A DNA stretch of 64,000 bases from an uncultured Holophagales bacterium (GTDB taxonomy: Bacteria; Acidobacteriota; Thermoanaerobaculia; Multivoradales; UBA5704), in contig CAWJGT010000001.1 in NCBI GenBank assembly GCA_963842525.1, positions 726,215-790,214 on the forward strand. Reading direction: 5' to 3'. Positions 957 through 63,897 of this stretch are shown piece by piece. How positions within the stretch are numbered: the stretch's first letter is position 1; the number at the start of each line of letters is the position of its first letter. The position numbers were made by a program, and so were the translations under genes. The notes under the pieces were generated by a model. The model was not told the DNA's origin, ran no database searches, and saw nothing but the letters and a program-made list of their open reading frames with translations.

Positions 957-3900
957 CTAGCCCTGCGGCTCCGGCTCCAGCACCACCTGCACCTGCACGG
1001 TGCCGCCGGGGGTGACGGTGATCGGGGTCTCCTTCGGGGCGAACCCATCCTTCTCGACCTTCAGGAGATAGCTCCCCGCAGCCAGCCGGGGGAATTCGAA
1101 GGCGCCCTGATCGTCCGTCTGGACTCTGGGGCCCGAGAAAAAGATGTCCGGCTCCGGGCCACTCCCGCGCAGCGAGACCAGGGCTTCGGGGACGGGTGAG
1201 CCGGCGGGGGTGAGGACGTGGCCTGCAGCGGAGCCGGTAGAGATCTCGATCGACACCTCCTGATCGGAGGTCAGCTCCAGGGACCGGGCATATCCGGGGC
1301 CGGCGTCGGGCGCGATGAGCAACTGCCAGGCTCCGGGCTGCAGGCCGTCGATCTCGAAGCTCCCGTCGTACCGGGTCGATGCCCGGCGCGTCTCGGAGCC
1401 CTGGCGTTGCGAGGCAACCAGGATGTCGGTTCCCGGCAGAGGCTTTCCGTCCAGAAGAACCTGGCCCGACAACTTGAGGCCGGCCGCGAATTGGAGGTCC
1501 AGCACCACCTCCTCTCCCGCCGGGGCGACCTCGACGGAGCCCTCGGCCTGCCGGTGGGGGTACAGGTACGCGAACACCCGCCAGGTTCCCGGAGCGGCAT
1601 CAGGGATCTGATAGCGGCTCCCCGGGCCGACGGTCCCGAAGAGGCGGCCCCCGGGCGGCCCTTCGAGCATCGCTACGATCTCAGCTCCGGCCAGCTCGTC
1701 CGCGGGCAGTCCCAGGAGGCTCCCCACGATCCGGGCCCCTCGGGCGAGCCTCAGCTCGAGGCCCTCGACGGGCCGGCCAGCAATGTGGACCTCGCGCGGG
1801 TCCAGCGTCCGTGCGAAGCCGGAAGCGCTCCCCTCCAGTTGAAAGATCCCATTGGTAACGGCCGGGAACAGGAAGGTGCCATCCATGCGGGAGCGGGTGG
1901 AAAAGGTCTGGCGCGAGCGGACCGGCCTCAGGAGGAGGGCCACAGCCGGCAGCGGCGTCCCCTGTGCGTCCGTCACCCGGCCGGAGACCTCGACGCCGCT
2001 GTCGAACGCGAAGTCGAGGCGGTTCACGCCCGGCCGGACCTCCGTGGGCCTCTGCAGGAGCTGGTCGTTGCCTTCGACCCTGACCATGACATTGTGCTCC
2101 CCCAGCTCGAGCCCCTCCAGGCGATAGCGCCCCTCGGTGTCCGTCGCGCCGTGGGGCGAGGAGAGCATCCGATCGTCGCGGTCCTCGAGATGGGCGCGGA
2201 CGTCCGCCCCGGCCACAGGCTCTCCGCGGCCATCCACGACGCGGCCTTCGAGGATGGCACCCCTTTCCAGCGTGACCTCGACCGGGGCGGCATCGCCCTG
2301 CTCCGGGAACCGCAGCCCCCGGACCAGCCGCATCCGATAGCCTGGGGCCCTCACGCCGAACGAGACCTCCCCCGCATCACCGGTCAGGACGAACTTCCCC
2401 TCGCCGTCGGTCGTCGTCGGGTGGTAGGACCAGTGGCCGTAGCCCGTCTTCCCGCCGCCGAGGCCCCTCTCGTGCTCGGTGAACGTGATGACCTGCGCTC
2501 CGGCGACCGGCCGCCCTTCGGGGTCCAGCACCCGGCCGGTCAAGCGGCGAAGCGCCAGATCCTGGAGCACGACCTGGACCGGCTCGAGCGTTGGCGCCTC
2601 CAACCCGGGAAGGTTGCTCTCGGCATATCCCTCGCGCGAGACGCTCAAGTGGAACCGCCGTCCCCGCGCCAGACCCGTGAGGCGGAAGCGCCCGTCGGGA
2701 CCCGTGACGACTGTGGCGCCGGTGGAGGGATACGGATCTACCGAAGCGCCCTCGACCGGAGCTCCGCGCGCGTCGATCACCCGTCCTTCGACCTCCACGC
2801 CCTCCTGCAGTGTGACCGTCCCCAGGTCCACCTCGCCCGCCGTCCCCGTGATCTCCACGCCCGGCAGGCGGACCGACACGAGCTTCGGGTGCTCCACCCA
2901 CAGATCGAAGCGTCCCGCAAACAGGTTCTGGAAGCGGAACGCGCCGGCAGCGTCCGAGATGGTCCTGAAGAGCTGCCTCCCAGGGTCGTGCGACCGCCTG
3001 GGATTCTGCTCCCCTCCTTCCGCTGCGCGGCGAAGAGTCAGCCTCGCCCCTGGAATCGCAGCCCCCTGCTCGTCCAGGACCTTCCCGACGGCAGTGCTGC
3101 CCCGGCTCAGGACGATCCGCAGAGGGGGTGTGGCTTGCCCCGGAGACGAAGACCAGGCCGGCAGGAGGGCTTCCGCGAACGCCTCCCGGGTGACCCTGAC
3201 CTCATAAGGCGCCGCGGCAGGGAGGCCGCGGATCTGGAAGCTCCCGTCCGGGTTGCTCCAGACCGCATCCCGGGACGCCAGAAGGCCGCGCTCAGAGCCC
3301 GGCGCTGTGGCCTCGAGCCGGGCGTCACCGACCGGCCGGCCTTCGGAATCCACGACACGCCCGAGGATCGAGCCGGCGGGATCCAGCAGCACGGTGATGT
3401 CCGGAGAGCTCCCTTTCTGCGGCTGCTGAGACGATTGCACATGGGCCGCCGCGACGGCCCGGAAGGAGGCCTGCTGCGAGCCCGGCGCGAGAGGAAGGCG
3501 GAAGCCGCCGTCCGCCCCGGCCCGCACCCAGGTGCGCCTGCCCCAGAGCAGCGCTCCGGGCAGGGGAGCGCGCGTGGCCGCGTCGAGCACCCGCCCTGCA
3601 ACGACGGCCGGGCTGTTGGACAGGGTGACGACCTTCGGCTTCGACCCGTCCTCATCCGGACCGAAGGTCAGCTCCGCCCACTCTCCGGTGGGACCTTCCA
3701 GCATCAGCCCGGCACGTTGCTGTGGGACGAGCAGGCTCAGCCGGCCGGCCGCGCCGGTTGCGGTGATCGGCCGTCGCTGTTGCCAGAGCACGGCGCCGGC
3801 GACCGGTCTGCCGTCCCTGCCGCGAACCTCCACGGTGCGCAGCGGACCGGCGGCGAGGCGGATCGTCTCCTTGCCGCCCACCTGGGCTTCGGCCTCCTGG

Positions 3901-26412: not shown

Positions 26413-28266
26413 TCAGCCCTGGTCCAGGTGTCCCGTGGCCGAGTCGCCCATTTCGACCCGCCCGTCGGGAAAGTACTCCCGCCAGCGGCGGGTCACGGTG
26501 GCCGCGGTCTCCTCGTCGGCGAAGAGCTCCTTGGGGAACCACGGCTTCATCCGGGCGTCGAGGAGGATAGGTGCCTTGTAGGAAAGGTGATGGCGGACCA
26601 CCGTGGTGCCCGCGGCATGGAGGTCCGCCGCGGGCTCGAAGCGGGTGAAGGTGGCCCAGAGGAAATTGATCGGGCTCGCGGCGGCGCGGCGCGGCTCGTC
26701 GGTCAGCACCAGGAGCGGCCAGCCGGCAAAAGCAGGATGACCGGCGAAGCGCGCCGCGGCCCCGGGGTCCTCCGCATACGAGGGTCCTCCCAGGATCAGG
26801 CAGCCCGGGCAGAAGACCCGCACGTCGGTTACACCCTGGGGGACCTCGGCGGCCGTGAATTCGCGCGGCAGCTCCCGCACCGGATCGCCGAGGCCGAGCC
26901 AGACCCCCTTCGAGCCCTGATTGACCGCCGGGCCTGTGTAATCGAGCGTATCCATCGAGAGGTTCGAGAGCACATAGAGGTCCGTCTCAGGGTGGGTGCG
27001 CTCCAGGATGTGCTGGAGCGTGCGCGGAAAATCCTTCAAATCGACAGGCCGATCGGTCACCAGGAGGAACTTGGTCAGCGAGAGCTGCCCTTCGCCGAGG
27101 ATGCGGAAGGCGCTCGCCATGGCCTCCCGCCCATAGCGCTGCTTGACGACCGCCGCGGCCAATGAGTGATAGCCGGTCTCGCCGTAGGACCACAGCGACT
27201 CGACCGCCGGCATGACCAGGGGGAAGAGCGGCGACAGCAGCTCCTGGAGCAAATCGCCGATAAAAAAATCCTCCTGCCGCGGCTTGCCCACCACGGTCGC
27301 CGGATAGATCGCGTCCTTGCGCCGGGCCATCCGCCGCACGTGGAAGACCGGATAATCGTGCTGGAGCGAGTAGTAGCCATAGTGATCGCCGAACGGGCCT
27401 TCCGGCCGCCGCTCGCGCGGAGGGACCTCGCCGATCAGCGCGAATTCGGCCGAGGCGACCAGCGGGTGCGGCCCGGGGCCGGGCGCCACGAGCCGCAGCC
27501 GCTCGCCGGCGATCAGCGAGGCGAGCATCAGCTCGGGGACGTTCTCCGGGAGCGGCGCGACCGCGGCCAGGATCAGGGCCGGCGGGCCGCCGAGGAACAC
27601 GGTCGCCGGCAGGCTCTGCCCCCGCGACTCGGCCACGGCATAGTGGAAGCCGCCGCCCTTGCCGATCTGCCAGTGCATGCCGGTCGTCCGCGGGCCGTGG
27701 ACGTGGAGGCGGTACATCCCCAAGTTGTGCCGCTTGGCGTCCGGCCGGCTGTCCGGGTGCTCGGTGTAGACGAGAGGCAGGGTGACGAACGGGCCGCCGT
27801 CCTCCGGCCAGGTGGTGAGGACCGGCAGGCGATCGAGCCGGACGTCATCTGTCACGACCTCGGCGACCGGCCCGGAGCGCATCCTCCTGGAGCCGATCCG
27901 CAGGGCCTCCCGTCCGATGTCGCGCGCGCCCCAGAGCTTGCCGGGCGTCGGCGGCAGCAGCGTCTCGGCGAGATGGACCAGCCGCCGGATCAGGCGCAGC
28001 GGCCGGGTGCCGAACGCCAGCTCGGCCCGCCGCGCCGTGCCGAAGAGGTTGGTCGCCAGCGGAAAGTCGGACCCACGGACGTTGGTGAACAGCAGCGCCG
28101 GCCCGCCCGCCGCGATCACCCGGCGATGGATCTCCGACGCTTCGAGCCGTGCATCCACCGGCGCCTCGACCACGGCGAGGTCGCCGTCCCGGCGGAGCTG
28201 GTCGAGGAAGGCACGGAGGTCGGGGAACGTCGGCTCGCTCACGGCGGTGAGTGTATCCGACCTCAC
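26413..28266 (-). CDS. UbiD-family decarboxylase
   Basis: 617 aa with a UbiD-like layout: 'PALLFTNVRGSDFPLATNLFG', 'WQIGKGGGFHYAV', 'GPFGDHYGYY'. Confidence 0.7.
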   Translation of the reverse strand: MRSDTLTAVSEPTFPDLRAFLDQLRRDGDLAVVEAPVDARLEASEIHRRVIAAGGPALLFTNVRGSDFPLATNLFGTARRAELAFGTRPLRLIRRLVHLAETLLPPTPGKLWGARDIGREALRIGSRRMRSGPVAEVVTDDVRLDRLPVLTTWPEDGGPFVTLPLVYTEHPDSRPDAKRHNLGMYRLHVHGPRTTGMHWQIGKGGGFHYAVAESRGQSLPATVFLGGPPALILAAVAPLPENVPELMLASLIAGERLRLVAPGPGPHPLVASAEFALIGEVPPRERRPEGPFGDHYGYYSLQHDYPVFHVRRMARRKDAIYPATVVGKPRQEDFFIGDLLQELLSPLFPLVMPAVESLWSYGETGYHSLAAAVVKQRYGREAMASAFRILGEGQLSLTKFLLVTDRPVDLKDFPRTLQHILERTHPETDLYVLSNLSMDTLDYTGPAVNQGSKGVWLGLGDPVRELPREFTAAEVPQGVTDVRVFCPGCLILGGPSYAEDPGAAARFAGHPAFAGWPLLVLTDEPRRAAASPINFLWATFTRFEPAADLHAAGTTVVRHHLSYKAPILLDARMKPWFPKELFADEETAATVTRRWREYFPDGRVEMGDSATGHLDQG

Positions 28267-28546
28267 CCCCTGTCCCCATGCGCTTTAACTTACCCCCGGG
28301 ACGTGCCAGATCGCCCAAGGTTCACACCCGGGGCTACCCAGTTCCGCCCTCCGGGCTCTCGAATCCTGGGCACTTCGACCAACATTCTTGCGAGCCCGGA
28401 GGGCGCCATTCGGTAGCCCAGGGTGTGAACCCTGGGCGGGAGCTTCGATCGTCATCCGCACCATACGAGCCTCCTTGACCATTTCCACCTTACCACGGAG
28501 GGATGAGGCTGTATCCTTGTGCGGCCCTGAGCAAGGAGCCCGATCC

Positions 28547-42955: not shown

Positions 42956-43239
42956 GGTGCGCCTCCGATCTCGCTGCACCGATCCGGGTGCCCGCTGGCC
43001 GGTGAAACCACTGAAGCGGCGGTTTCCTGCGGCCAGGGCTCTCGGATCACTGCCGAGCGTTTGGTGATCCCGCTCTGCGCGCACAGCAACCGCGATGCCA
43101 GGTGCGAAAGCCGACGGTAAGAGGCGGAAAACAAAGGGCTTGCCGGTGACCCTACGGACGCAAGCCGACTCATCTTCGACGTTTTCGTCGAGGAGCGGCG
43201 ACGAGACTGTCGAAAAGAGCGAGTCGTCGGCGCCGCCGG

Positions 43240-43302
43240 GCCCTCACCTCCCCGGCCCTCCTCTCCCAGCCTCACACCCGCCCTTCCGGGAGAGGAGGGA
43301 GA
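43240..43302. repeat. Left arm of a 65-bp near-perfect inverted repeat that brackets the DUF559 gene
   Basis: 'ccctcacctccccggccctcctctcccagcctcacacccgcccttccgggagaggagggag' is the reverse complement of 43691-43758, with 1-2 mismatches. Confidence 0.85.
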
Positions 43303-43310
43303 TCGGATCA

Positions 43311-43673
43311 TCAAGGGTTGCGTTGTTCGAGTCGTTGATGGATTTTTTCGAGAACGGAGTCGAGGTTTTCCAGGACCTCTTCATTCGTGAAGCGTAGGAC
43401 CTTGTAGCCCAGGGCGACCAGATTGACGTCCCGGTTCTCGTCGTGGATCTTCTGCCGACGGTCCTCATGTATCCCACCGTCGAGCTCCAGCACGAGCATC
43501 CGATCGTGGCAAAAGAAGTCCGCAATATATTGTCCGATCGGCACTTGACGGCGGAATTTCAGGCCGAGGAACTGCCGATCGCGCAGCTTCTCCCAGAGCA
43601 CTTCTTCGGCCAACGTGGATGCCCGGCGAAGACGCTTGGCGCGGACGAGGGCTCCGGGACCCGAAACAGGCAT
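43311..43673 (-). CDS. DUF559 (Vsr-like endonuclease fold) protein
   Basis: 'MPVSGPGALVRAKRLRRASTLAEEVLWEKLRDRQFLGLKFRRQVPIGQYIADFFCHDRMLVLELDGGIHED'. Confidence 0.75.
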   Translation of the reverse strand: MPVSGPGALVRAKRLRRASTLAEEVLWEKLRDRQFLGLKFRRQVPIGQYIADFFCHDRMLVLELDGGIHEDRRQKIHDENRDVNLVALGYKVLRFTNEEVLENLDSVLEKIHQRLEQRNP

Positions 43674-43690
43674 GACGGGATCATAGAACT

Positions 43691-43758
43691 TCTCCCTCCT
43701 CTCCCGGAAGGGTGGGTGTGAGGCTGGGAGAGGAGGGCCGGGGAGGTGAGGGCCCGGA
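43691..43758. repeat. Right arm of the 65-bp inverted repeat, 17 nt upstream of the DUF559 start
   Basis: 'ttctccctcctctcccggaagggtgggtgtgaggctgggagaggagggccggggaggtgagggcccgg'. Confidence 0.85.
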
Positions 43759-43872
43759 CGGCGCCGCCGACGCTTCAAGTACCACCGAGTGACATGGAGA
43801 CGAGGTGGCGCGGCGTGATCTTCGCGGCCGAGGGCATTCCTCCATGTATGATACGCAGGTGCAAGGGATTCT

Positions 43873-44973
43873 ATGCTGTCCAACATGAACACCAGCCACC
43901 GCGCGGCACTCGCCGCGATGCTCGCGGCCAGCCTTTTAGCGTTTGGCTGTGCAGGCCGCCGGGCACCCGCTACACCGGCCGAGCCACCCCCGGAGGCGCC
44001 GGCGAGCGCGCCGGAGGCCGAGCGTCCGGCGGGCACCGGGGAAGCGCCGCGGCCGGGGCTGCGCGACCTCTGCCGTCAGGGGCCTGACGAAACCGAGATC
44101 CTCGACGAGACGCGCCAGACCCTCGAGGAGACCTTCTGCAGCGCCACCCTCTGGCTCGACGGCCTTCTCGGCGGTGAGGCTGATGTCGAGAACGCACGCG
44201 CGGTGTCGGGCCGGGTCGATCTGTCGACGCTCTACACGGAGTTCGACGGGTTCACCCTCAAGGAGCGCCTGCGCCTCAGGTACGACCTGCCCAACCTCGA
44301 GCGGCGGCTCAACGTCTTCGTCGGCCGCGATGAGCGCGACGAGTTCGTCGAGGACCGGCGCGAGGGGTTCGCCGTCCGTTCCTCGGTCTTCGGCCTGGAG
44401 GACGAAGAGGAGTGGCTCGCCGGCCTCGGCTATTCGCCACCGGGCCGCTGGAACAGCAAGATCGACTTCCGCGTCGGCGGCAAGTTGAAGAGCGCCCCCG
44501 AAGTCTTCGCCCAGAGCCGCTACCGGCGCAACATCTTTGCCGGCGACCGCAACGTCTGGCGCTTTCGGGAGACGGTCTTCTGGGAGAACCGCGAAGGTTT
44601 CGGATCGACCACCAGCCTCGATTTCGACCACGTCCTGCGTCGCGACCTCCTCTTTCGCTGGGGCAACATCGGCACCTTCTCGGAGTCGACCGACGGGATA
44701 GCCTGGCGCTCGGCGGCCCTCGCCTACCACAACATCCGCCGTTCCCGGGCCGTGGCCGGGGAGCTCTTCCTGCGCGGTGCCACCCAGGCCGAGGTCAAGC
44801 TCAACGAGTACGGCACCCGCGCCATCTACCGCCAGCCGGTGGGAAAACCCTTCCTGTTCGGCGAGCTGGTCGTCGGCTACACCTGGCCCCGCGAGGAGCG
44901 CGATCAGCCACGCGAAGGCTCGGCGATGATCGGCTTCGGGCTGGAGCTCCTGTTCGGGCGTGAGCCTTACTGA
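43873..44973 (+). CDS. Hypothetical lipoprotein
   Basis: Signal peptide plus lipobox 'LLAFGCAG'. No recognisable domain. Confidence 0.5.
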   Translation: MLSNMNTSHRAALAAMLAASLLAFGCAGRRAPATPAEPPPEAPASAPEAERPAGTGEAPRPGLRDLCRQGPDETEILDETRQTLEETFCSATLWLDGLLGGEADVENARAVSGRVDLSTLYTEFDGFTLKERLRLRYDLPNLERRLNVFVGRDERDEFVEDRREGFAVRSSVFGLEDEEEWLAGLGYSPPGRWNSKIDFRVGGKLKSAPEVFAQSRYRRNIFAGDRNVWRFRETVFWENREGFGSTTSLDFDHVLRRDLLFRWGNIGTFSESTDGIAWRSAALAYHNIRRSRAVAGELFLRGATQAEVKLNEYGTRAIYRQPVGKPFLFGELVVGYTWPREERDQPREGSAMIGFGLELLFGREPY

Positions 44974-49439: not shown

Positions 49440-49880
49440 TTGGAAATCGAGCCCCGCAGGGGCGGACGGAATTAGCCCGGTACGTCAGTGCCGGGTTGGG
49501 AGGCACAAATCCACCATCCAGCCCCGGTAGGGGCGGCAGGAAATCCGGTGGGTTGAAATGCGTTCGGTTCCCGGGATTGAAATCCATACCTTTACACACA
49601 TCTCAAAGCGCCCCTTGTGGGCGCGGGCGCGTAGACCCGGGTTTCAACCCGGGGTCGCGGAGGCCCGGCCCGTTTCGAGCCCCTTTCAGGGGCGTCGGCG
49701 AGGATGGCGCACAGGCCCGCCGTCCTCGGGCACCGCACACCGACGGCATTGCGCTTCCGTCTGCGCCATCGCCCCTGAAAGGGGCGCAGGGAGGATTGGT
49801 GGATCTCGCACCCCGGGTTGAAACCCGGGGCTATGTGCCAGCGCCCACAAGGGGCGCTTCCCCCACCCTCCCGGACAGGA
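49440..49880. repeat. Composite GC-rich multi-hairpin element with UUCG/GNRA-type tetraloops, arranged as a ~95-bp imperfect inverted repeat around a ~65-bp core
   Basis: Left arm 49607-49697: gcgcccc-ttgtg-ggcgc; gacccggg-tttcaa-cccggg; gcccct-ttc-aggggc. It is mirrored at 49764-49862 as cgcccct-gaa-aggggcg; ccccggg-ttgaaa-cccgggg; gcgccc-acaa-ggggcgc. Confidence 0.75.
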
Positions 49881-51221: not shown

Positions 51222-51460
51222 AGTGCAAGCCCAAAGGGCGTGGCGAAGGTGCCCCGAAGGGGCTCTGGCGTAAAGCCTGGCGCTTCAGCGCCAGGTTGGC
51301 GTTCCCCAAACTCTCCGGAGCCCCGAAGGGGCGCAGGCATTGCGTCAAATTTGCCGTCGCCCCTTCGGGGCTTGGAGGCGTGGAGGACCCTGACCTGGCG
51401 CTGAAGCGCCAGGCTTTATGCCTGCGCCCCTTCGGGGCTCCTCGTCGCCGTCGTCGTTGG
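51222..51460. repeat. Nested inverted repeats of small hairpins (gccccGAAggggc / gccccTTCGgggc; cctggcgcTTCAgcgccagg)
   Basis: Left arm 51240-51300 mirrors right arm 51385-51445. An inner inverted repeat lies at 51322-51372. Confidence 0.7.
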
Positions 51461-61733: not shown

Positions 61734-63897
61734 TTGCTCAAGGGCAATCCTTTTTTCCTGGCGCTCGGTGCCGCAATCCTGATCTTCGGGGGGTGCTCCC
61801 GCGGGGACGGAGGAGCTGCGCCAAGCCCGAATCTGCTGCTCGTGACCCTCGACACGGTGCGAGCCGACCGAATCGGCTCTTATGGCTACAGGGCAGCCGA
61901 AACGCCCTGGCTCGACCGCCTGGCGGGCGACGGGGTGCGCTTCGCGCAGGCCTCGGCGCCGGTGCCTCTCACCCTCCCATCGCACGCCAGCATGCTCTCC
62001 GGCCTTCTGCCGCCTCATCACGGCCTGCGCAACAACGGCGTCGGCACCTTCCCCGAGGGGCCGTCCACCCTGGCCACGCTGCTCGCGGCGGAGGGCTACC
62101 GCACCGGCGCCTTCGTCGGCTCCTTCGTGCTCGACCGCCGGTTCGGCCTGGGGCGCGGGTTCGAGGTCTACGATGACGAGATCGAGAGGGATCCGGTCGC
62201 CGGCACGACCCTCGAAGCCGAACGGCCGGGCCGGGAGGTGGTCGACCGCGCCCTCGCCTGGCTCGCCTCTGCCAGGACCGATGACTCCCGTCCCTTCTTC
62301 CTCTGGGTCCACCTGTACGACGCCCATGCCCCCTACACGCCGCCGTCGCCGCACCGCGAGCGCCATGCCGGGCGTCCCTATGATGGCGAGATCGCCGCGG
62401 TCGACGAGCAGGTCGGCCGCCTGCTGGCGGCGCTCGAGCAGCGCGGCCTGGCCGGGCAGACCGTGGTGGCGGTGTCCGGCGACCACGGCGAGGGGCTGGG
62501 CGACCACGGGGAGCTTACCCATGGGCTGCTGCTCTACGAGCCCACCCTGCGCGTGCCGCTCCTCGTGCGCGCGCCGGACGTGAAGCCGGGCCGGGTCGTG
62601 CGCACTCCCGTCAGCCTCGCCGACCTGGCCCCGACCCTGGCCGGTCTGCTCGGCAAGGGCCTGCCGGCGCCTCCGGTGGGAACGCTCGACGGCCGCGACC
62701 TCTCGGCCCCGTTGCGGCAGGGCGAGGAGCCGCCGCCGGCTGACATCTACGCCGAGACCCAGTACCCGGCGATCTTCGGCTGGAGCCCTCTTGCCGCTCT
62801 GCGGCGCCGCGATCTCAAGTACATCTCCGCCCCGCAGCCGGAGCTCTACGACCTGGCCCGCGACCCGGGCGAGGCAGCCGACCTGGCGCGACAGAGGGAG
62901 GAAGGCCAGCTACGCGGCTTTGCCGGCCGCCTGGCCGAGATCGAGGCCGGCGCCGTCGAGGCCCCGCGCGGCGGCGTCGATGCGGAGACGCGCGCCCGGC
63001 TGGCGAGCCTCGGCTATGCTGCCGGAGGGACCGCGCCGCCGCGCCGCCGCACCGGCGACCCCGGAGCTGCCGACCCCAAGCGCATGGCGCCCCTCTTCGC
63101 GCGGTACGAGCGGGCGCACGCCCAGCTCCGCAGCGGCCGGGCGGAGAGCGCCCTGGCCGAGCTCGAGGCCCTGGTCGCCGCCGACCCGGGCAACCCGGTC
63201 TTCCGTGGCGAGCTGCGCCCGGGCCTGGCGCGAACGGGGGGAGGTGGAGAAGGCCGTGCCGCTCCACCGGCAGGCCGCGGCGGACGCCCCCGACGACCCC
63301 GAGGCCTGGTACAACCTGGCGTCGACCCTCCAGGAGGCGGGGCGTACGGCCGAGGCCCGGGAGGCGATCCAGCGGGCCCTGCGGCTCGATCCGGCGCGGC
63401 CCGAGGCGCACAACACCCTGGGCGTCCTCCTGCTCGCCGAGGACCGGCCGGAGGCGGCGCGCCAGGAGCTCGAGCTCGCCGCCGCGCTCGATCCGCGCAA
63501 CGCCACGGCGCTCAACAACCTCGGCAACGTCCTGCGCGGCCTGGGCCGGGCCGCGGAGGCCGAGCGCGCCTACCAGCAGGCGATCGCCGTCGCGCCCCGC
63601 TACGCCGAGCCGCTCAACGGCCTCGGCACCCTGGAGGTGGAGCGGGATCGGCCGGCTCAAGCACTTTCCTATTTTGACCGGGCTCTCCGTCTGGCGCCGC
63701 GCTACCACGAGGTCCGCCTGAACCGTGGCATTGCGCACGAGGTCGCCGGAGAGCCGGACGCGGCGGCGGCGGCGTACCGCGATTTCCTGGCCGCCACCGA
63801 GGGCGACCGCCAGTTCGCCGAGCAGCGCCGGACCGCCCGGATGCTGCTCGCAAGGATCGAAGACAAGAGAACGACCACCACTCAAGAGAGGAGGTGA
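61734..63897 (+). CDS. Lipoprotein sulfatase (alkaline-phosphatase superfamily) fused to C-terminal TPR repeats; one frameshift near 63230
   Basis: TTG start, lipobox 'LIFGGCS'. 'LLLVTLDTVRADRIGSYGY', 'HASMLSGL', 'GDHGEGLGDHGE'. Then TPR 'AWYNLASTLQEAGRTAEA...'. Confidence 0.65.

Follow-up and report, generated by a model that had tools for sequence, protein, structure and literature searches.

DUF559 genes are specifically and recurrently embedded in intrastrand triplex-motif (TM) repeats across many bacterial phyla, and the repeats far outnumber the genes. The analysis concerns a 64,000-nt stretch of genomic DNA from an uncultured Holophagales bacterium (the window, meaning that whole stretch), which contains a cassette with a single DUF559 gene between two inverted arms, and a second, gene-less element at about 61.5 kb. 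TM repeats, known in Escherichia coli since the 1990s under the older names BoxC and PIT element, occur by the thousands across bacteria, and the literature assigns them no function, origin or partner protein. DUF559 is the first candidate for such a partner. In the literature mentioning DUF559 or its E. coli representative ycjD we found no link to TM repeats, and the pairing appears to be undescribed in searchable publications.

A repeat search of the window bears out the near-perfect inverted repeat that an earlier note on this DNA had placed around the gene: the arms are 67 nt long, complementary at 66 of 67 positions (99%) and separated by 388 nt (Table 1). DUF559 is the sole open reading frame (ORF) that they enclose. 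The spacing given in that note was exact, with 8 nt from the stop codon to one arm and 17 nt from the other arm to the ATG, and the reading frame does stay open upstream through the arm, giving an ORF of 241 amino acids (43311..44036). The GC content of the gene is 0.55-0.60, compared with ~0.70 in the flanks. Each arm folds as a hairpin of about -17 to -19 kcal/mol (z -2.2 to -2.9), and in the downstream arm the G-rich strand is the minus strand of the window. The arm linkers hold CCGG or CCWGG methylation-type sites. If one indel is allowed, the repeat extends outward by a further ~8-13 nt (CGGCGCCG(T)CCGGGC), and similar GC-rich outer extensions are present at L001, a related cassette described below. 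The two copies of this extension do not form a direct repeat and so are no target-site duplication. As a possible target-site duplication we also rejected CGGCGCCGCCG, an 11-nt sequence present on both sides, as it is the palindromic outward continuation of the inverted repeat. Sequence inspection found no target-site duplication at the cassette ends in the window, and there is no transposase, recombinase, invertase or methyltransferase among the genes within ~5 kb. An integron cassette (attC) was also rejected, since the arms are inverted around one ORF and there is neither a GTTRRRY core nor an integrase. A search of Rfam gave no structured-RNA match on the arms, and no promoter or terminator consensus sites were found at the cassette. 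In addition, the G-rich strand of each arm contains at least six runs of at least three G, and so qualifies as a canonical G-quadruplex motif as well, with the C-rich strand a possible i-motif. Judging from these motifs, triplex may not be the sole non-B form open to the arms.

The cassette arms belong to the known TM/BoxC/PIT family and are not the private ends of a new transposon. The third block of each arm mirrors the middle block under purine-motif rules (G*G-C, A*A-T, T*A-T), with 12 of 12 triads and a 3-nt linker, CCG, in both arms, and the stem CCCTCCTCTCCC/GGGAGAGGAGGG is a perfect 12 bp in both. The two halves of the 61.5-kb element have 10/11 and 9-10/11 triads and an 11-bp stem. 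The 123 instances among the collected loci comprise 34 different combinations of first and second G-block, and in every combination the second block mirrors the first (for example GGGAGAAGAGGG with GGGTGATGAGGG, or GGGAGAGGAGGG with GGGAGGTGAGGG); a control block across the hairpin reached the same mirror standard in 0% of cases. Given the complete set of triads and the covariation of the blocks, the window arms are a variant of the TM family with a long loop and 12-nt blocks. They do not fit the strict E. coli consensus (TMECO), which has 9-nt blocks and a first loop of 3-6 nt, as the window elements have blocks of 11-12 nt and a first loop of 20-22 nt; short first loops are present in many of the scanned loci. 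The TM elements of the window are intergenic, and the scanned TMs occur both as singlets and as inverted pairs. Intrastrand TM repeats are reportedly also the subject of work by Hoyne and Maher from 2000 and 2002.

The TM design was described by Holder (2015; PMC4666352), with the TMECO consensus CCCTCNCCC N3-6 GGGNGAGGG N3 GGGNGAGGG. That study counted 3610 copies in 262 proteobacterial genomes, with 23 in MG1655, five as inverted pairs, and very high numbers in cyanobacteria. TM loci were found to be unusually variable between strains and to be rearrangement hot spots in E. coli. No mobility function was ever found near TMs, no role or associated gene was given, and an endonuclease is never mentioned.

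Scanning one genome per species with the outer 22-26 nt of the arm returned at least 119 loci. The matches listed include Thermoanaerobaculia and other Acidobacteriota, Chloroflexota, Cyanobacteria, Armatimonadota, Gemmatimonadota, Planctomycetota, Bacteroidota, Myxococcota, SAR324 and Gammaproteobacteria. Surveyed for what lies between the arms, as the earlier note had suggested, the pattern recurs in many genomes. Taking the matches listed, the fetched loci and the window together, most arm-pattern matches with an inverted partner within 3 kb form pairs of 96-240 nt with no gene inside, and no gene other than DUF559 was found between TM pairs. The only TM pairs longer than 260 nt in this combined sample measure 512, 565 and 719 nt, and all of them enclose DUF559.

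The association is also visible from the side of the gene. We collected 80 metagenomic DUF559 loci, 64 of which have at least 200 nt on both sides of the gene. A significant flanking inverted repeat is present at 39 of these 64 loci, and almost all of these repeats are of the TM family. Within 300 nt of DUF559 the strict arm motif has a density of 1.67/kb, compared with 0.03/kb elsewhere in the same loci; for a sequence-agnostic TM detector the two densities are 3.11/kb and 0.076/kb, a 41-fold enrichment. At least one TM lies within 300 nt of the gene at 49/64 loci, and TMs lie on both sides at 33/64, the commonest orientation being that of the window, with the third blocks outward. Among close homologs on long contigs, the architecture recurs in unrelated genomic settings; L001 (71% amino acid identity) has 89-nt arms and is located between an LpxC-fusion gene and PPDK, and L004/L005 (61% amino acid identity) has 71-nt arms. 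The DUF559 gene is usually single-copy per record. No relatives were found in viral contigs, and 38 of 72,556 plasmid records contain a relative, most of these being chromids or mislabelled chromosomes. A phage or plasmid vehicle was rejected on these grounds.

Many annotated DUF559 homologs run into the repeat, yielding peptides such as SPLSRRAGGEAGREGSGE or PLTPALSPRE. The open upstream frame had been offered as the explanation of the odd N-terminal extensions on DUF559 proteins, which is correct in part: read-through into the arms does occur, accounting for 4 of the 14 N-terminal extensions among 120 homologs, but extensions are commoner at the C-terminus (42/120), where 16 are clearly repeat-derived. 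Separately, some DUF559 relatives (L189, at 2712-2752 / 3510-3550, L178 and L202) lie within AT-richer and quite different inverted repeats, such as GAATAGACAGGATTAACAGGATT... and GCCCCCATCCCCTGAAGGG. Bracketing of DUF559 by inverted repeats may be wider than the G/C-rich TM family.

The arrangement is also present in cultured isolates, among which the TM sequences vary and the three-block design is constant. In Deinococcus psychrotolerans (L214, NZ_CP034185.1, 298410-298763) a DUF559 gene between paaD and paaZ is enclosed by a 56-nt, 98% inverted repeat of TMs. In Neisseria gonorrhoeae the gene lies between direct repeats of ~100 nt, each of which contains CTCTCTCCC-TGT-GGGAGAGAG-CTA-GAGAGAGGG; on plasmid pAQ6 of Picosynechococcus PCC 7002, C5-loop-G5-NNN-G5 arrays are found on both sides of the gene; and in Synechocystis B12 (L212, plasmid CP101712.1, 35379-35846) a TM is located upstream of the DUF559 ORF. 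The Deinococcus cassette forms a clean insertion between co-oriented genes of the phenylacetate operon, and no target-site duplication was found at this sharply bounded cassette. In Synechocystis B12 the gene and its upstream TM are located between a short 'DUF1156' ORF and a 'hypothetical' ORF, which may be the halves of one interrupted DUF1156 gene and hence a possible insertion into coding sequence. The DUF559 gene of pAQ6 likewise neighbours DUF1156.

The second element of the window is an ordinary gene-less inverted doublet of the TM family. The cargo-less inverted repeat that the earlier note had reported is present at 61501-61668, between divergent and unrelated genes at 60916-61455 (minus strand) and 61734-63677 (plus strand, a sulfatase). 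Folded as a single strand, it gives one long hairpin (-67 kcal/mol, z = -9.9). The two loci had been called related, and they are: the cassette arms and the doublet arms align at 47 of 58 positions with the same block order, and the alignment score of 23 compares with -3.8 +/- 4.7 in shuffles, 0 of 1000 of which reach 23. When applied to the 64-kb window, the sequence-agnostic detector returns exactly four matches, the two cassette arms and the two doublet halves, so the repeats of cassette and doublet are not a product of chance.

Table 1. Positions of the DUF559 cassette, the gene-less doublet and an isolated fragment in the window
Feature	Position	Strand	Description
Downstream arm of DUF559 gene	43236..43302	-	TM; CCCTCCTCTCCC, 20-nt loop, GGGAGAGGAGGG, CCG, GGGAGGTGAGGG; third block outward
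Upstream arm of DUF559 gene	43691..43757	+	TM; G-rich strand is plus; one loop position differs from the other arm
Weak outward extension of the inverted repeat	43228..43235	.	CGGCGCCG, itself palindromic; partner 43758-43770, 1-nt indel
DUF559 nuclease gene (predicted)	43311..43673	-	ATG 43673, stop 43311-43313; 363 nt / 120 amino acids; PF04480
Left half of gene-less TM doublet	61501..61562	-	CCCCCTCTCCC, 21-nt loop, GGGAGAGGGGG, CCA, GGGGGTGAGGT on minus strand
Doublet spacer	61563..61605	.	43 nt; the position taken by the gene in filled elements
Right half of gene-less TM doublet	61606..61668	+	More degenerate, 9-10/11 triads
Isolated 19-nt fragment (possible relic)	28259..28277	+	GACCTCACCCCCTGTCCCC; 18/19 identity to outer block of the 61.5-kb element, E = 0.003

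The protein encoded in the window matches PF04480 (DUF559) with E = 6e-38 and 129 bits, relative to a gathering cut-off of 20.6, and PDB 3HRL, a structural-genomics DUF559 structure, with E = 2e-20. The invariant DUF559 residues D52, E63, D65, H69, D78 and R81 are all intact. By fold, an AlphaFold model with a mean predicted local distance difference test (pLDDT) score of 80 is closest to 3HRL, then to the catalytic domain of I-Bth0305I, then to Vsr, and a Foldseek comparison with I-Bth0305I (PDB 3R3P) gave E = 2e-3 and a target TM-score, here the measure of structural similarity, of 0.73. The protein is predicted to be a Vsr-fold PD-(D/E)XK nuclease. E. coli YcjD had been tied to Vsr by profile comparison (Kosinski et al. 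2005).

Comparison of the window gene with that of L001 gave 71% nucleotide identity, with nonsynonymous (dN) and synonymous (dS) divergence of 0.21 and 1.29, respectively (dN/dS ~0.16), and these values show the DUF559 gene to be under purifying selection. The non-coding arms of the same two cassettes, including the 20-nt loops, are 95-98% identical, which is above the gene and also above the 83.5% identity of a neighbouring orthologous gene in the two genomes. Arm identity is 95-98% within a cassette and 80-89% between more distant cassettes. Comparison of orthologous loci, also suggested in the earlier note, shows that their content differs. In L132 the cassette is complete, with arms of 141 nt each, and between the same flanking genes L094 has 143 nt of intergenic sequence with neither TM nor gene. 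Another site, upstream of one shared gene, exists in three states: an empty doublet in L055, TM-DUF559-TM in L165 and, in L141, DUF559 beside an intact doublet, the gene being in the opposite orientation to that of L165 relative to the shared flanks. Together with the recurrence of the pattern and the gene-less counterpart, this presence and absence upholds part of the earlier interpretation of the two window loci as a hairpin-ended mobile cassette and its empty form, or miniature inverted-repeat transposable element (MITE). The part that falls is the nature of the ends, which are three-block repeats of the known TM family and carry no transposition signature.

An empty orthologous site for the window's own cassette was not found; the orthologs of the right neighbour, L126 and L128, have different upstream genes, and exact-protein look-ups of the window DUF559 and of its left neighbour gave no match. 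In L126 (3222-3897) and L128 (3522-3904) the region upstream of the ortholog of window 43873-44973 contains other small genes, including a UPF0150/HicB-like ORF, and small selfish genes seem to accumulate at this intergenic position. One further contig (L125, Logan contig ERR11593888_1153344, positions 1-44) comes from another run, is 99.9% identical to the window and ends inside the right arm. This break indicates that short-read assemblies break at the inverted repeat, so that metagenome assemblies probably contain too few such cassettes or incomplete ones.

Elsewhere in the window, the isolated fragment listed in Table 1 is possibly a TM relic, its membership, judged by sequence similarity, being uncertain. 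It adjoins the part of the window (26656-28211) whose ortholog forms the left flank of L141, and the window locus matching that flank (~26.4 kb) has neither TM nor DUF559, synteny being broken there. The fragment is ~115 nt from a match to the Rfam Acido-Lenti-1 RNA, which has three matches above the gathering score in the window (41-49 bits), at 28393-28436 (minus strand), 49450-49495 (minus strand) and 51394-51439 (plus strand), in keeping with a source in the Acidobacteriota (Thermoanaerobaculia). With regard to the position of TMs in general, many of them (e.g. L011, L013, L038, L101 and L116) directly follow either GTAGGC or the stop codon of the preceding gene. Classical repetitive extragenic palindromic (REP) sequences have GTAG as their conserved 5' tetranucleotide, and the likeness between TM and REP may be a coincidence or may simply come from a location immediately behind genes.

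The one DUF559-only gene of E. coli K-12 is ycjD (1351407-1351760, minus strand). On its downstream side are found, in order, a degenerate TM over the stop codon (CACCCTCTCCCTGAAAGAGCGAGGGGG), a duplicated piece of the ycjD 3' end, and TMECO #9, which lies 167 nt from the gene. In MG1655 (L209, NC_000913.3 ~1351240-1351410) this piece is a second partial copy of the last ~50 nt of ycjD, followed by a remnant, GAAAGGGTTAGGGG, and then TMECO #9. The duplication has the appearance of a scar left by an earlier DUF559-TM unit or by gene conversion. In Table S2 of Holder (2015; PMC4666352) ycjD is given merely as a flanking gene, without remark. All 5,426 complete E. coli genomes were searched with a segment holding ycjD and TMECO #9, and TMs were counted in an evenly spaced sample. 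ycjD is present in 3,377 of the 5,426 genomes. In the sample, the number of TM places is 17-33 where ycjD is present (median 22, n=37) and 2-20 where it is absent (median ~8.5, n=22). These counts agree with the per-strain numbers of Holder (2015; PMC4666352), namely 19-30 in K-12, B, 55989, IAI1 and W, 6-15 in 042, UMN026, IAI39, SMS-3-5 and an O157:H7 strain, and 1-2 in CFT073, UTI89, IHE3034 and S88. They also agree with the phylogroup distribution of Pugh et al. (2026), who place ycjD at the fabI-sapF locus in phylogroups A, B1 and C, precisely where eefRABCD is missing. One E. coli match (H38) was considered as a ycjD-deleted fabI locus and rejected, as it is an unrelated TM doublet between gudD and barA.

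We propose that DUF559 and the TM repeats are partners that work in the manner of a homing endonuclease or of REPIN-RAYT (REP-associated tyrosine transposase) systems, the latter said to have been described by Nunvar in 2010 and by Bertels and Rainey in 2011, and we give this proposal an even chance of being right. DUF559 would be the cognate nuclease of the repeat family, recognising the TM as a sequence or as a non-B structure permitted by the mirror design, and nicking or cutting there. Recombinational repair from another TM-flanked copy would then carry the gene into or next to TM doublets, and the same repair would keep the two arms of a cassette near-identical and would propagate or homogenise gene-less TMs. 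The pair of enzyme and repeat could be selfish or semi-domesticated. Its chemistry would be of the homing endonuclease type, break plus repair, with no transposase and no target-site duplication. A more specific version is possible, although we lean against it and offer it tentatively: DUF559 would be a structure-guided nuclease acting on the flanking triplex (also G-quadruplex-prone) motifs, forming a self-propagating pair in at least 10 phyla and a second, mechanistically different counterpart of REPIN-RAYT that relies on non-B DNA. If so, the origin, conservation and instability of BoxC/PIT/TM repeats would be explained, those of E. coli included via ycjD, and an enzyme recognising a non-B DNA structure would be one of few known in nature and might be of use as a tool.

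Several points weigh against the partnership. The action of DUF559 on TM DNA is something that we infer, and Holder (2015; PMC4666352) found the triplex to be stable in vitro in an isolated single strand but detected it neither in duplex DNA nor by footprinting in vivo. Among the matches listed, a DUF559 gene is present at 1 of 119 arm-pattern loci, most TM copies being cargo-less; conversely, 15 of the 64 DUF559 loci have no TM within 300 nt, and every sampled locus encodes a relative with 41-68% identity to the window protein. The flanking TMs of Neisseria and PCC 7002 are direct, not inverted. The shared-site comparisons span diverged genomes with flanks 73-82% identical and blurred junctions, so that insertion and deletion fit alike and are not distinguishable. 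In E. coli, TMs persist without ycjD, at ~14 places in O157:H7 and at 2-5 in the lowest-count ycjD-less genomes, and the correlation between ycjD and TM number is confounded by phylogeny, being consistent with the partnership hypothesis and not proof of it. Finally, the sole DUF559 protein with genetics, Caulobacter VsrA (PMC12907096), shows methylation-linked, repair-type behaviour, causing an SOS response upon deletion of a solitary cytosine methyltransferase.

Much of the evidence could also be accommodated if DUF559 were a free-standing homing endonuclease using existing TM doublets as landing pads, with TMs spreading in some other way. The enzyme would cut an empty doublet and repair would copy the gene into the spacer, which fits the empty (L055) and filled (L165) doublets at the same site, the location of the gene at the doublet-spacer position, the fold resembling the I-Bth0305I catalytic domain, the lack of a target-site duplication and the abundance of TMs in genomes without the gene. 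However, gene-less doublets in the clade usually pair different TM subtypes, whereas cassette arms are of the same subtype and near-identical, loops included. Furthermore, arms and gene are jointly present or absent in L132 and L094, the L141 gene is beside the doublet and not within it, and the gene, being usually single-copy per record, does not fill many sites. We regard homing alone as unlikely, if worth keeping in view. The behaviour of Caulobacter VsrA, functionally tied to a cytosine methyltransferase, instead recalls a host repair or defence nuclease, for instance one for T:G mismatch repair linked to cytosine methylation, in which case the TMs would be incidental, marking unstable DNA or regulating or insulating the gene. 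That E. coli TM loci are rearrangement hot spots, that the arm linkers contain methylation-type sites and that ycjD occupies a fixed locus are in keeping with such a role. Against it stand the 41-fold TM enrichment, specific to DUF559 within the same loci, the recurrence of the pairing in distant phyla with very different TM sequences, and the finding, among the matches listed, of no other gene between TM pairs. PIT elements tested in E. coli had no promoter or terminator activity, in line with the lack of such consensus sites at the window cassette, no methyltransferase lies within ~5 kb, and the low GC content of the gene and its varied insertion contexts, including the paa operon, look mobile. 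A host nuclease with incidental TMs is, in our judgement, slightly less likely than homing alone. These two rivals, and with them the inversion switch considered next, still carry weight, since TMs outlast the gene and the shared-site comparisons span diverged genomes.

The long, near-perfect arms and the opposite gene orientations in L141 and L165 raise the question of whether the arms are recombination sites that flip DUF559 as a phase-variation switch. "DUF559 domain-containing protein" is indeed 14-fold enriched, without comment, among the predicted programmed-inversion targets of Milman et al. (2023), but such a signal is expected for any ORF overlapping a flanking inverted repeat. No invertase or recombinase is located within ~5 kb, there is no fixed outside promoter or partner coding sequence to join, and the layout is symmetric, so a flip would change little. 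In addition, L141 and L165 also differ in the position of the gene relative to the repeats, opposite orientations were observed only between diverged genomes, and the flanking TMs of Neisseria are direct. We hold an invertible segment to be very unlikely. As for chance or an assembly artefact, assemblers do break at the repeat, as seen in L125, but the same architecture is present in independent assemblies, in complete isolate genomes and in the 5,426 E. coli genomes, and no shuffle reached the arm-to-arm alignment score; we give this explanation next to no weight.

The DUF559-TM link provides a testable hypothesis, in a model organism, for a repeat family with no assigned function and for a very common nuclease domain with almost no experimental characterisation. 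With one ycjD and 23 TMs, E. coli K-12 offers a direct test of a BoxC/PIT question that dates from the 1990s. Three further observations would be accounted for by the link: that DUF559 genes are flagged as inversion targets, that their annotated ends carry odd proline/glycine-rich extensions and that assemblies break at these loci.

Among known systems, MITEs and other transposons with terminal inverted repeats resemble the cassette in having such repeats around a gene and short gene-less forms; they differ from it in that the cassette has no target-site duplication, no transposase family and ends that are a pan-bacterial repeat. Vsr and Caulobacter VsrA (PMC12907096) share the superfamily and the fold, and the catalytic positions D52 / E63-x-D65 / H69 align. 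In contrast, the window gene has no methyltransferase within ~5 kb, a functional link at a distance being possible, encodes a minimal domain, and lies in a TM context that is undescribed for Vsr or VsrA. Free-standing homing endonucleases such as I-Bth0305I (PDB 3R3P) are similar in the small nuclease gene, intergenic or operon-internal location, lack of a transposase, and fold, and possibly in presence and absence at shared sites. Here, however, there is no intron or intein, the target would be a dispersed repeat and not a unique gene, and none was found in viral contigs. The published TM/BoxC/PIT repeats are like the window arms in their three-block design, their intergenic location, their occurrence as singlets and inverted doublets, their cross-phylum distribution and a near-identical core (GGGAGAGGG ... 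GGGTGAGGG). They differ in the shorter E. coli blocks and loop given above and in having no reported associated gene, whereas the window repeats bracket a nuclease gene. REPIN-RAYT systems use an HUH/Y1 (IS200/IS605-type) transposase and here there is DUF559 only; as this is predicted to be a Vsr-fold PD-(D/E)XK protein and not an HUH/Y1 enzyme, the chemistry cannot equal that of REPIN-RAYT. REPs are, moreover, species-specific, whereas the TM core is cross-phylum and is a triplex-type mirror repeat. The layout is nevertheless the same, with a low-copy gene within inverted hairpin repeats, the same repeat being far commoner as gene-less singlets or doublets, and no target-site duplications. 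E. coli has one ycjD and ~20-30 TMs, and the source genome has, within 64 kb, one cassette and one doublet.

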